64,000 nucleotides of DNA from Chloroflexota bacterium (lineage in GTDB: Bacteria > Chloroflexota > UBA11872 > VXOZ01): assembly GCA_965221905.1 (NCBI GenBank), contig OZ244922.1:1216001-1280000 (forward strand). Reading direction: 5' to 3'. The position numbers were made by a program, and so were the translations under genes. This document shows, piece after piece, positions 26,307 through 29,913 of this stretch. The notes under the pieces were generated by a model. It saw only the letters and a list, made by a program, of their open reading frames with translations. It was not told the DNA's origin and did not search any database. How positions within the stretch are numbered: position 1 is the first letter of the stretch; the number at the start of each line of letters is the position of its first letter.

Positions 26307-27569
26307 ATGGCATCGCTTCCCCGTATGGTTCACGTACGTCAGCGGTTCGCTACGGAACAGATTGAGAACCTCCAAGCTGCAATTCACGCCGAGCTAACGC
26401 GCGTGGGTTTGGGGAAGGTTGTGCGTCCCGGTATGGAGGTTGCCATTACAGCCGGCAGCCGGGGCATCAGCCGTATTCCGGAGATAATTCGTACGGTCGC
26501 GGATGCTGTGAAAGCGGCGGGCGCTGCGCCTTTTATCGTGCCGGCCATGGGCAGTCATGGCGGCGCCGTGGCGGAAGGGCAAGCCTCGGTATTGCGCGAC
26601 TACGGCATCACTGAGGAGTCAACCGGCGCGCCCGTACGCGCCACGATGGAGGTGGCGAACCTCGGTACGACGGCCAATGGGGCAACGGTATTCTTCGATC
26701 AGAATGCCTACAATGCAGATGCAGTCATTGTGGTGGCTCGCGTAAAGCCCCATACGAGTTTCCGCGGCCCGGTGGAGAGCGGCCTCTGCAAGATGATTGC
26801 AGTGGGTCTGGGCAAGCAGAAGGGCGCGGAGCAAATGCACGCCCACGACTTGGCTGAGACCATTCCCCAGTCCGCGGCGATTGCAATCGAAAAGTCGAAT
26901 ATCGTGCTGGGTCTTGGCGTAGTCGAGAATGGGTACGACCAACCCCACACGGTGCGAGCGGCCCAGGCCGAAGATATCTACGAGACCGATAGAGAACTGC
27001 AGACACTGTCGAAGACGCTGCTGCCCCGCGTGCCGTTTGAAGAGCTCGACCTTCTCATTGTGGACGTGATGGGGAAGAATATCTCCGGCGCGGGGATGGA
27101 CCCAAATATCATTGGGCTCAACCGCGGCATGACGATGGACCGGCATCCCAACTACAAGCGCGTGCTCGTACGCGACCTGACGCCGGAATCACACGGCAAC
27201 GCGGTGGGCATCGGCCACGCGGACTTCGTGACGAAGCGCCTGGCCGACAAGATCAACTACTACGACCTTTACATGAACGCCCTCACGGCCAACAACCCGT
27301 CCGTAGCCAAGATTCCCATCACACTGGAAACGGACCAGATTGCAATTGAGACGGCCTTCAAGTCTGCCTGTACCGACGTAGCTGCCCCCCGTGTGGTGCG
27401 CATCTACAGCACACTCCACTTGGAGTATCTCCTCTTTTCCGAGGCGCTCATACCGGCTGCGGAGGAAAATCCTGCACTGGAGATTCTCGACGTTCCTTAT
27501 GCATGGGACTTCGACGCCAGAGGCAATCTGCTGGAAGACGGACTGCTCCACCAACCGCAGAGCGCTTGA
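26307..27569 (+). CDS. lactate racemase N-terminal-like (DUF2088/DUF362) protein
   Basis: AITAGSRGI, PAMGSHGG, RVKPHT.F, ESGL.KM, GKNISG.GMDPN, SHGNA.G.G. Confidence 0.85.
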   Translation: MASLPRMVHVRQRFATEQIENLQAAIHAELTRVGLGKVVRPGMEVAITAGSRGISRIPEIIRTVADAVKAAGAAPFIVPAMGSHGGAVAEGQASVLRDYGITEESTGAPVRATMEVANLGTTANGATVFFDQNAYNADAVIVVARVKPHTSFRGPVESGLCKMIAVGLGKQKGAEQMHAHDLAETIPQSAAIAIEKSNIVLGLGVVENGYDQPHTVRAAQAEDIYETDRELQTLSKTLLPRVPFEELDLLIVDVMGKNISGAGMDPNIIGLNRGMTMDRHPNYKRVLVRDLTPESHGNAVGIGHADFVTKRLADKINYYDLYMNALTANNPSVAKIPITLETDQIAIETAFKSACTDVAAPRVVRIYSTLHLEYLLFSEALIPAAEENPALEILDVPYAWDFDARGNLLEDGLLHQPQSA

Positions 27570-27755
27570 CCTTCGTTGGCAGTCGATTTGCGATTGAGGT
27601 CTAATTCGGTTCTTCGGCAGTTGCCCATCCTAACGTTGCTAAGTCAATGGTGCCGGTCTGACTGCTCACACTCTGTGCCCAGTGCTACCTGCTATAGCAA
27701 TTCCGGTACGGAATTAGCAAGAATGTGCTCACCTGCTTCGTTGCGTTGAAGTATC

Positions 27756-27872
27756 TGTCATTCCGAGCGCAGCGAGGAATCTAGGGGCCATGCCGTGCAT
27801 AGTTTCATAGGCCTCAGCACTCTAGATTCCGCGCTCAGAGCGACACTGCGCTGCGCTCCGTTCGGAATGACA
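27756..27872. repeat. REP-like inverted repeat element
   Basis: TGTCATTCCGAGCGCAGCGAGGAATCTAG...CTAGATTCC...CGTTCGGAATGACA. Confidence 0.75.
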
Positions 27873-28002
27873 ACAGGGGTGCGCTCCGTTGGCCGTGCGT
27901 TATGTCTCACATGTCGCATAGCTAAAGCCTAGAAGTACAGTTTTCGTTTCGGTTTTCGGTTGAGGAATCGGTCGCCCGGCATGTTATACTGAAGATATAC
28001 AT

Positions 28003-28376
28003 GGGGATGAGTGGATTCGACAGGGTTGGGAGGCTTGTAACTGCGAGCCGAGGTGCTATCACCCTCGTTAAACAGGTAGCAACTTTTTTAAGTGCCAACA
28101 AGCACGATTTTGCTCTCGCAGCCTAAATAAAGCTGTGACGTCCATCTGCTCTTCCTCCGGTGAGCGCAGCGTGGGCGACCTAACAGCCGGGGTGCCGCAG
28201 TCCATGCGGATAGAATCCGCCGCCTTCGGGGATTGCGAAAGACAAATGGAGGCTAGTTTCCAGAGGTTTTCGTCCGCTCGTGATCTGGAAATGAACTTCA
28301 AAAGCTGACTACGCTCGTAGAGGTTGCAGGAAGAACAGCTTTGGACGGGGAGTTCGACCCTCCCCCATCTCCACCA
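28003..28376 (+). ncRNA. ssrA: tmRNA, tag (A)ANKHDFALAA
   Basis: GGGGATG...GATTCGAC 5' end, GTTCGAC...CATCTCCACCA 3' end, resume ORF 28094-28126; extended -10 TGTTATACT upstream. Confidence 0.97.
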
Positions 28377-28625
28377 TAGTCACAATTCACCGTGCGACCG
28401 CGCAGGAACCTTCCGGTGCGCGGCTTTGTGCGCATGCCAGCCCAAGTCCTCCAATCTGTTTCCTGGCTTTTTCTAGGTGAGAGGGGTGGGCGCAGGGGTG
28501 CTAGTCGCGGTGAGGTGTTTTCTGTGAGGCACAGGGCGAAGTACGCCGGTTTGTATGCTATAATGCCGTTGCGGAAGCGTATGTGATAGCCTTCTGCGAT
28601 TGGAGTAGAGAAAGAGAGCGATAAA

Positions 28626-28937
28626 GTGATTACGGTTACTGACACGGCGGCGGCTGAGTTGCAACGCCTTTTGGCGGGTAACGACATGGCTGATGCCAAG
28701 CTGCGCATCTTTGTGCAGAACGAGTGCGGCTGCGGCAAGGTGAACTTCGGCATGGGCTTCGACCAGCAAGTTGAAGATAACGATCAGGTGGTTGATTCGG
28801 CCGGTGTCGGCGTGGTGATGGACCAGCAGGCGTTCGCGGCGCTGGACGGCGCTTCGGTAGAGTATGTTAACGAGGGCGCGCGCCGCGGCTTCATGATAAG
28901 TGGTGTTGAGACCGGTGGCTGAGGCGGCGGCGAATAG
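28626..28937 (+). CDS. HesB/IscA family Fe-S carrier, probably with C-terminal Sec (otherwise ends at 28922)
   Basis: MITVTD.AA.EL, LRIFV..ECGCG..FGMGFD, L.GA.V.YV; TGA 28920-22 followed by GGGE-TAG and a SECIS-like hairpin. Confidence 0.85.
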
Positions 28938-29224
28938 AAAGCCCGTGTAGGCTTTCAACAAGGTAGGATCGGACTTAGAGGGGCATTCTGCTCTTCCTGG
29001 CTGGACAGGGAAGTGGAGCGCTCCTCTTGTTTTGCTTTTAGATTGAGTGTTGGTAGTACGCGGGCGGTTGCGCGCCGGTTTGCACTGCACGCGCGAGGGG
29101 ATTTGCTGCTTTGTATACTCCTACGGGGATAACGAGATACTATGCGTGATCCCGCTTTCCCAACCCCTGCAGGGCTGACTTTCCACGTGCGCGCTTAGAG
29201 TGAGATGGTGTCTGCCAGGCAGTT

Positions 29225-29263
29225 CACCTTCACCCCGGCCCTTTCTCATCGAGGGAGAGGGGG
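29225..29263. repeat. REP-like element, CCCTCACCCCGGCCCTCTC..GGGAGAGGG family
   Basis: caccttcaccccggccctttctc..gagggagagggg; related copy near 46694-46733. Confidence 0.6.
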
Positions 29264-29421
29264 TACGAGCGTACGCTTGGGAAACTTGCAAAGCAAGCGT
29301 ATCCCTTCGAGGGAGGGAAAGAGAGCACTCACGCCGGCCTTGGCTTTCGCGAGTCAGTTGAGATGCTCGCTGTAAGGTACGGAGCGGTTTTAGGACCCAT
29401 GAAACGAGCCACTACTTGCCC

Positions 29422-29913
29422 ATGAAACGTGTGACTATCTACACAGACGGCTCTTGCATCGGGAATCCGGGCCCTGGCGGCTATGGGGCGGTTATTCTAT
29501 TCAACCAACACCGCAAGGAGATTGCCGCCGGGTATCGCAAAACGACGAATAACCGCATGGAGATTCTGGCGGCTATCCGTGCGCTGGGAAAACTCACTGA
29601 ACCTTGCGCAGTTGTCCTGCATAGCGACTCCAAGTATCTTGTGGACGCGATGAGCAAGGGTTGGGCGGAAAAGTGGCGAGCGGACGGATGGAAGCGCGGG
29701 AAGGATGGCAAGGCTGCTAATCCCGATCTGTGGGCACGCCTGCTCGAATTAGCCGCCACGCACCGCGTGACCTTCAAATGGGTGCCCGCGCACCGCGGCA
29801 TACCGGAAAACGAACGCTGCGATAAGCTCGCGAACACAGCGGCGCGAGGTGATGACTTGCTGATTGACGAGGGATATGAGAAGTCCGCTGCGTCCGCAGC
29901 GACAGATTCGTAG
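29422..29913 (+). CDS. rnhA: ribonuclease HI
   Basis: YTDGSC.GNPGPGG, TTNNRME, DSKY, N.DLW, NERCDKLA. Confidence 0.96.
   Translation: MKRVTIYTDGSCIGNPGPGGYGAVILFNQHRKEIAAGYRKTTNNRMEILAAIRALGKLTEPCAVVLHSDSKYLVDAMSKGWAEKWRADGWKRGKDGKAANPDLWARLLELAATHRVTFKWVPAHRGIPENERCDKLANTAARGDDLLIDEGYEKSAASAATDS

Follow-up and report, generated by a model that had tools for sequence, protein, structure and literature searches.

A variant A-type iron–sulfur carrier gene of uncultured Chloroflexota with a putative selenocysteine codon near its C-terminus and a candidate SECIS element in the 3' UTR

Results

Genes and features at the locus

In this work, the window is a 64,000-nucleotide stretch of a genome of an uncultured Chloroflexota bacterium, whose order comprises 17 genomes of one genus; an orthologue of the gene described here was present in all 17, with 80-99% identity. 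The gene was read as a 98-codon frame on the plus strand (28626-28922) with a GTG start and the end ...GVETGG-TGA. There are just two Cys residues in the 98-aa product, C34 (28725-27) and C36 (28731-33), both within the motif ECGCG, and the CGC at this site is invariant in the 17 orthologues. The preliminary description of this DNA, which had noted the two Cys residues and a TGA followed by GGGE-TAG, was accurate in all of these details. In public records the protein has 98 aa (or a longer N-terminus), ends at the TGA and bears the name 'iron-sulfur cluster assembly accessory protein'. The features of the locus are collected in Table 1.

Table 1. Features of the carrier locus (positions of the window).
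Feature	Position	Strand	Description
tmRNA gene	28003..28376	+	RF00023, 168.3 bits, full length
Proposed complete coding sequence	28626..28937	+	GTG start, 103 codons and TAG; IscA/HesB domain, U99, tail GGGE
Codons C34-G35-C36	28725..28733	+	C36 occupies the N-terminal Cys site of A-type carriers; C34 is additional
TGA, proposed selenocysteine codon U99	28920..28922	+	TGA in 17/17 genomes; counterpart of the first Cys in the C-terminal CGC
Tail codons GGC GGC GGC GAA (Gly-Gly-Gly-Glu), as proposed	28923..28934	+	orthologue comparison
Proposed true stop TAG	28935..28937	+	the hairpin stem starts at its G
SECIS candidate	28937..28956	+	7-bp stem, 28937-43 with 28950-56; loop CGUGUA, 28944-49
Intrinsic terminator	28977..29039	+	long hairpin 28977-29027, then U-rich UUGUUUUGCUUUU

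By its domain scores the product is an A-type Fe-S carrier, with 45.4 bits against PF01521 (cut-off 26.3) and 61.2 bits against TIGR00049, narrowly above the cut-off of 58.8. When the frame was read through the TGA, the family alignments reached residues 100-103, and without read-through they ended at about residue 92. The relatives in the PDB were HI1723 (2apn, E = 2e-12), Aquifex AQ_1857 (1nwb, 4e-12), E. coli IscA (1r94/1s98, 2e-8) and SufA (2d2a, 2e-4). C36 aligns with the Cys of GGCSG in 1nwb_A, 2apn_A and 1r94_A and is thus the N-terminal ligand Cys, and C34 is an additional Cys two residues ahead of this canonical position. Opposite the TGA (residue 99), Aquifex AQ_1857 and E. coli IscA have the Cys that opens their C-terminal CGC, close to where the TGA had been placed from the single sequence, and the second Cys of this motif is replaced by Gly in 17/17 genomes. 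The TGA is equivalent to a Cys only when decoded as Sec, and with Gly in second place the C-terminal C-G-C ligand pair is absent as such, so the carrier is a variant of the family and not a canonical member.

The carrier gene stands alone between the tmRNA gene and rnhA, outside any isc/suf operon. The tmRNA gene lies about 250 nt upstream and accounts for much of the ORF-poor stretch 27570-28625. The same genome encodes a canonical three-Cys A-type carrier (L075, G000:C1:3020019-3020321). A third PF01521 paralogue (36.7 bits; L077, G000:C1:2972320-2975589, with the match at C1:2973820-2974089 on the minus strand) is without any Cys at the ligand positions (PGADGMQFGM...). Metatranscriptome contigs of relatives 90-99% alike, from four runs of two studies, span 28380-29100 (three runs) or 28496-29100 (one run), although DNA carry-over is possible. 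They have no listed difference in 28905-29039, their high depth perhaps comes from the adjacent tmRNA, and contigs of this kind cannot show transcript ends.

The TGA codon, the tail and the second stop

The preliminary description had named orthologues ending in TAA or TAG as grounds for abandoning the proposal that the TGA is a sense codon. No such orthologue was observed: a single in-frame TGA was present at the same codon in 17/17 genomes, and the metagenome contig L078 carries the gene with the same TGA reading. All 17 genomes belong to one genus, so this conservation partly reflects shared ancestry. The first eight nucleotides after the TGA, GGCGGCGG, are invariant in 17/17. The ninth base differs between genomes (C in 13, T in three, A in one) but always gives Gly, so that Gly-Gly-Gly is kept and the post-UGA tail is conserved as anticipated, with synonymous third-position changes only. 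A fourth tail codon is GAA in eight genomes, AAA in one, TCC in one and absent from seven. The second stop is TAG after four codons in ten genomes, TAA after three in six, and TAG after three in one; thus the second stop moves and changes and the first never does.

As a stop-codon control, the ends of frames were compared in 20-kb stretches round the gene in 13 of the 16 other genomes (G001, G002 and G003, with short contigs, were left out), and frames with sense-codon counterparts were ignored as spurious. Neighbouring TGA stops were kept as TGA in 4/12, 7/12, 6/13, 1/13 and 5/7 genomes, and in the small sets in 5/5, 3/3 and 2/2, whereas the TGA of the carrier gene was kept in 16/16 other genomes. 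Some neighbouring TAG stops were likewise well kept (10/12 and 12/13). Conservation of a stop is therefore weak evidence when taken alone, and the control is supportive but not decisive.

The tail has just three or four residues, so constraints on coding and on RNA are indistinguishable there, and the invariant third positions of the first two Gly codons point to a constraint at the RNA level as well. RNAalifold also returned a short helix at 28906-28931 (plus strand), in which the pre-UGA codons (CCG.C.GC) pair with GGCGGCGG and the UGA lies in the loop. The changes in this helix are one-sided only (U-G/C-G), and it might be the reason for the unvarying third positions.

These observations bear on a different reading, in which the TGA would be an ordinary stop, the product a 98-residue IscA-like protein without C-terminal ligands, and GGCGGCGG together with the hairpin a 3'-UTR RNA element unrelated to Sec (stability, processing or protein binding). 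The invariance of the eight nucleotides even at third positions, and the pairing of pre-UGA codons with them, would suit such an element, and the public gene calls do finish at the TGA. Against this, no exchange for TAA or TAG has occurred in 17/17 genomes, while neighbouring TGA stops do change; within the three tail codons just one base varies, at a third position and without a change of amino acid; and the TGA coincides exactly with the Cys that begins the CGC motif of the family.

The hairpin downstream of the TGA

A perfect hairpin of 7 bp (GAAAGCC/CGTGTA/GGCTTTC) begins 14 nt after the TGA, with its loop 21 nt after it and G second in the loop, exactly as first described. The 14-nt spacer was found in 17/17 genomes without indels, although the 3' UTR past the hairpin does have indels. 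There are three versions of the stem, GAAAGCC/GGCTTTC in eight genomes, GAAAGTC/GGCTTTC with one U-G pair in one, and GAGAGCC/GGCTCTC in eight. One pair is therefore changed on both sides, A-U in nine genomes and G-C in eight, which is the covariation that had been called for. All 98/98 helix cells are paired, and when the partner strand was slid by 1-3 columns, at most 50% were. In 500 column shuffles neither the observed pairing nor the observed covariation was reached (0/500), and RNAalifold recovers the 28937-28956 helix unaided. The loop always starts C-G-U-G and has 6 nt, but 5 nt in two genomes. The compensatory pair separates two groups of related genomes, and it may go back to a single event.

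The fold of the single sequence is unexceptional (-11.9 kcal/mol, z = -0.59; 50/200 shuffles as stable), and about 1% of long stop-to-stop frames have a comparable hairpin behind them, whichever stop ends them (TGA 53/6143, TAG 64/5268, TAA 36/2886). The hairpin is thus not more than chance when judged from one sequence, but it is more than chance across the relatives. In the bSECIS model the loop may have 3-9 nt and the stem 4-16 bp, with a G in the first two loop positions (PMC13188914, Fig. 2 legend), and the further limits in the same article are 16-37 nt from the UGA and an MFE of -7.5 kcal/mol or lower. The carrier hairpin lies within all of these constraints (loop 5-6 nt, stem 7 bp, loop start C-G-U..., 21 nt, -11.9 kcal/mol).

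The possibility that the hairpin acts only as a terminator had been raised at the outset. It was rejected, because the hairpin is followed by AACAAGG and not by a U tract, and a separate strong terminator begins about 20 nt beyond it. The long hairpin of this terminator has a predicted energy of -32.2 kcal/mol (z = -3.56; 0/200 shuffles as stable) and is followed by a U tract. A matching long inverted repeat was found after the small hairpin in 17/17 sequences, of which the window copy alone was folded, and several of the stretches end before the U tract. A simple terminator scan picked up neither the small nor the long hairpin.

In an Rfam search of 27000-29600 with a permissive E-value (up to 1), no match was found at the hairpin; the tmRNA alone reached the gathering score, and there were two weak sub-threshold matches besides. 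By comparing both sides, the unexceptional energy of the single hairpin agrees with an ordinary stop followed by some other RNA element. On the other hand, its spacing and loop fit both the bSECIS model and the fdhA SECIS of the genus itself (see below), and no Rfam family matches the region. We consider the ordinary stop improbable. The codon at 28920 very probably specifies Sec, with the help of a SECIS element in the 3' UTR.

Capacity for Sec decoding in the genus

The source genome (3.52 Mb) contains selB (360.7 bits), selA (565.6), selD (380.4) and tRNA-Sec (67.1), all above the curated cut-offs, so the full selA/selB/selC/selD set expected with a bacterial selenoprotein gene is present. 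The selD gene has one in-frame TGA (CAG-U-AGK) at window positions 16834-16832 on the minus strand, and fdhA, encoding formate dehydrogenase in the same genome, has a TGA in the context CNRT-U-HAPS. The organism is able to decode UGA as Sec. The Sec-type selD, from which this capacity had initially been suspected, is real, and selA, selB, tRNA-Sec and the Sec-type fdhA bear the suspicion out.

The SECIS elements of the two genes were compared over the 17 genomes. That of fdhA (GUCGUC-GGUCU-GGCGAC) starts 12 nt after the UGA, and that of selD is CGCGCAG-GUN-CUGCGCG. G-U at the 5' side of the loop (GU or NGU start) is common to the carrier, fdhA and selD hairpins, and the loop GU of the carrier hairpin is 3 nt farther from the UGA than that of fdhA in the same genome. 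Downstream of the selD UGA there are in fact two conserved hairpins. The first (CUCGGC-CCC-GCCGAG) starts 9 nt after the UGA and has a loop without G; the second, the CGCGCAG-GUN-CUGCGCG hairpin, starts 26 nt after it and is the sole one of the two that fits the bSECIS rule. The third loop base of the latter varies freely (U, G, A, C), being the third position of a Val codon.

Two further genes with an in-frame TGA were observed in the genus. The first is a MetE-like gene (L190:1-1356, plus strand; G000:C1:2441177-2442532) with the TGA at C1:2442152 in the context FAFHL-U-RGN. Its alignment to PF01717 (62 bits) spans the TGA, and a hairpin starts 13 nt after it. The codon is TGA in 11/14 orthologues and TGC/TGT in 3/14, which is Sec/Cys alternation within one genus. 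The second is a DSP-type phosphatase-like gene (L191:1-480, minus strand; G000:C1:3177654-3178133; PF22784 55.9 bits, PF00782 35.6 bits) with the TGA at C1:3177827, at the place of the catalytic Cys (ALIH-U-GSGFGGAGT). One TGA was found in 17/17 genomes, 16 of which were displayed by the motif search, and a hairpin (GGGCCG-GUA-CGGUCC) starts 16 nt after it. The genus also appears to place Sec where a MetE-like enzyme has a zinc-ligand Cys and where a DSP-type phosphatase has its catalytic Cys. The words 'methionine synthase', 'MetE', 'PF01717' and 'phosphatase' are absent from the review PMC13188914.

Relatives with Cys and origin of the ligand layout

No TGA was found in matches outside the genus among 401 sampled genomes of the phylum (five marked unpublished included). 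The nearest relatives outside the genus have 40-44% identity, CGCG at the N-terminal site and the end GG-C-G-C-GG-H, with Cys and not Sec. The TGA position aligns with the first Cys of GG-C-GCGGH in these relatives (at most 44% identity), so the in-frame UGA is matched by Cys in homologues; a comparison for TGA/Cys alternation had been called for at the outset. Among the translated loci, 10/19 were of this four-Cys type (9/18 without L055 from the unpublished G158) and the other nine were canonical, with GGCSG...C-x-C. The representative alignment was built from the best 150 of 1075 sequences, from which the fragments P0010 and P0012 of the same clade were dropped to leave 148. Cys was present at both N-terminal columns in 22 of these 148, and 20 of the 22 had two or more tail Cys, the exceptions being P0084 (a frameshift-like entry) and P0014.

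The subfamily, which we label here the four-Cys CGCG...GGCGCGGH subfamily, shares with the carrier the motif [QG]xCGCG..[HN][FY]GMG and a Gly-rich C-terminus, but differs by its C-terminal CxC, usually followed by G-H, and by the lack of an in-frame TGA. We know of no curated model for this subfamily of PF01521. Cys in the context GG-C-GGG was found in none of the 12 word-index matches, the best 150 representatives, the 401 phylum genomes, the 30 metagenome loci and the 34 genome loci. The Cys/Sec pairing therefore rests on relatives of at most 44% identity.

The carrier is best read, from these alignments, as a four-Cys form in which the first C-terminal Cys was replaced by Sec and the second was lost, which would keep the number of ligands per protomer at three, now arranged 2+1. 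The 'reversed ligands' (CGC...U) of the preliminary description thus stand as a layout, but the derivation from the canonical C...CGC does not hold; the form would instead derive from the four-Cys subfamily by loss of the last Cys. A 99-aa sequence from a JGI metagenome (P0014, a cluster of one member) is 60% identical to the carrier, has ECGCGK and ends ...GVSSGGG. Its DNA was absent from the metagenome and genome collections searched, and it may represent a second lineage of the same form.

The likeness of the tail GGCGGCGG to the Gly-rich C-terminus of the four-Cys relatives could also mean that the gene end is decaying, i.e., that an ancestral TGC-to-TGA nonsense mutation removed the CGC tail and left a remnant behind. 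A remnant would drift, yet the 17 species have retained the eight nucleotides, the helix and the length of the spacer, while their coding third positions and more distal 3' UTR have diverged, the latter with indels. We regard decay as hardly credible.

Discussion

Proposed decoding of the UGA

It is probable, on the comparative evidence, that the carrier gene encodes a selenoprotein. More precisely, a 102- or 103-residue paralogue of the A-type carriers, in which UGA codon 99 is read as selenocysteine by the putative SECIS mechanism below, is in our view highly likely. We hypothesize that SelB with Sec-tRNA(Sec) binds the small hairpin, whose loop starts C-G-U, 14 nt past the UGA, and that the hairpin-bound SelB would be positioned at the ribosome while the UGA occupies the A site. 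After Sec, three or four codons would be translated (Gly-Gly-Gly, sometimes with Glu, Lys or Ser), and a UAG or UAA within the spacer or at the base of the hairpin would end translation. Transcription would end at the separate downstream terminator. The insertion of Sec and the binding of SelB are what we infer from the conserved sequence features, the homology and the decoding machinery of the genome.

The textbook bacterial SECIS lies inside the coding region. With the stop in the spacer or at the hairpin foot, the SECIS of the carrier would be almost wholly in the 3' UTR, a natural case of a layout that is routine in engineering (TrxR constructs). A Sec so near the C-terminus is invisible to methods that demand an open frame after the TGA. 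All public calls seen end at the TGA, and the third ligand is thus missing from databases.

Possible function of the selenocysteine

In the proposed protein, each protomer would hold its cluster through three ligands, C34, C36 and U99. Its origin would lie in the four-Cys subfamily, through the conversion of the first C-terminal Cys to Sec and the loss of the second. That Sec serves to ligate an Fe-S cluster is suggested by homology, and we judge this about evenly balanced. A wider reading is somewhat less likely than not: a natural A-type carrier in which Sec would ligate a transient Fe-S cluster, with a rebuilt ligand set, altered lability and a SECIS beyond the last sense codon, in a genus with an unusually inventive selenoproteome.

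On the other hand, the UGA may encode Sec in a protein that is no Fe-S carrier. CGC...U would then be a Se/S relay or a redox (selenenylsulfide) centre, serving, for example, selenium trafficking to SelD or metal handling. The known HesB-like selenoproteins are functionally uncharacterised and most prokaryotic selenoproteins are redox proteins, as the review PMC13188914 describes them. Moreover, the canonical three-Cys carrier is retained in the genome, so the Sec-candidate paralogue is an extra copy, and its isolated position between the tmRNA gene and rnhA, outside an isc/suf operon, would also suit a role of this kind. However, three ligands per protomer are preserved, as would be expected if cluster binding were retained, and the fold and the family scores are those of A-type carriers. 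In most genomes read, selD is about 12 kb from the carrier gene, and at least one (G016) has the two far apart, which means that they are not linked in an operon. We therefore find the relay or redox centre rather unlikely.

Sec at the C-terminal ligand site of a TIGR00049-type carrier would mean that Cys has been exchanged for Sec in this fold a second time and independently, and the carrier could reveal the effect of selenium in the place of an Fe-S cluster ligand or of a relay atom. Together with Sec at the zinc-ligand Cys of the MetE-like enzyme and the catalytic Cys of the DSP-type phosphatase, it would extend the selenoproteome of the genus beyond the usual redox families.

Comparison with known systems

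The carrier has the same domain and length as the A-type carriers IscA, SufA and ErpA, and it retains their N-terminal ligand Cys (C36) as well as the position of the first C-terminal ligand. It differs by an extra Cys, by UGA for the first C-terminal Cys, by Gly for the second and by an end three or four residues past the UGA. The ligand layout of the canonical carriers is 1+2, and the one proposed here is 2+1.

With the HesB-like selenoproteins the carrier shares the fold and the proposed replacement of a ligand Cys by Sec, and gene callers truncate both. Membership in the two models for such proteins was rejected, since the carrier scored 19.6 bits against TIGR01911 (cut-off 66.35) and 43.9 bits against IscA_HesB_Se NF038090 (cut-off 85); NF038090 was above its cut-off in 0/401 genomes of the phylum sample. 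The HesB-like selenoproteins have Sec at the N-terminal Cys site, according to the prokaryotic selenoprotein table of PMC13188914, in which TIGR01911 (UxGP) is the sole listing for the IscA/HesB fold. The N-terminal site of the carrier reads C-G-C-G-K in place of UxGP, and its TGA is at residue 99. Unlike in the HesB-like selenoproteins, Sec would be at the C-terminal site, and the SECIS would consequently lie behind the stop codon. No mention of C-terminal Sec in an IscA/HesB protein was found in the literature consulted, by word look-ups in the main texts of PMC1794560, PMC13188914, PMC12013277 and PMC13326102; supplementary tables could list it.

Bacterial families with C-terminal Sec are known, among them UXX-star (NF041114, NF041211) and SaoC with its 'CU', both listed in PMC13188914. 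Moreover, a SECIS beyond the stop codon works in bacteria for a penultimate Sec, as in the TrxR-SECIS constructs of Arner 1999 (described in PMC11431864). These protein families are unrelated to the carrier. Because only a few residues follow Sec in all of them, the bacterial SECIS has to be located in the 3' UTR and near the UGA, and this is the arrangement that we propose for the carrier.
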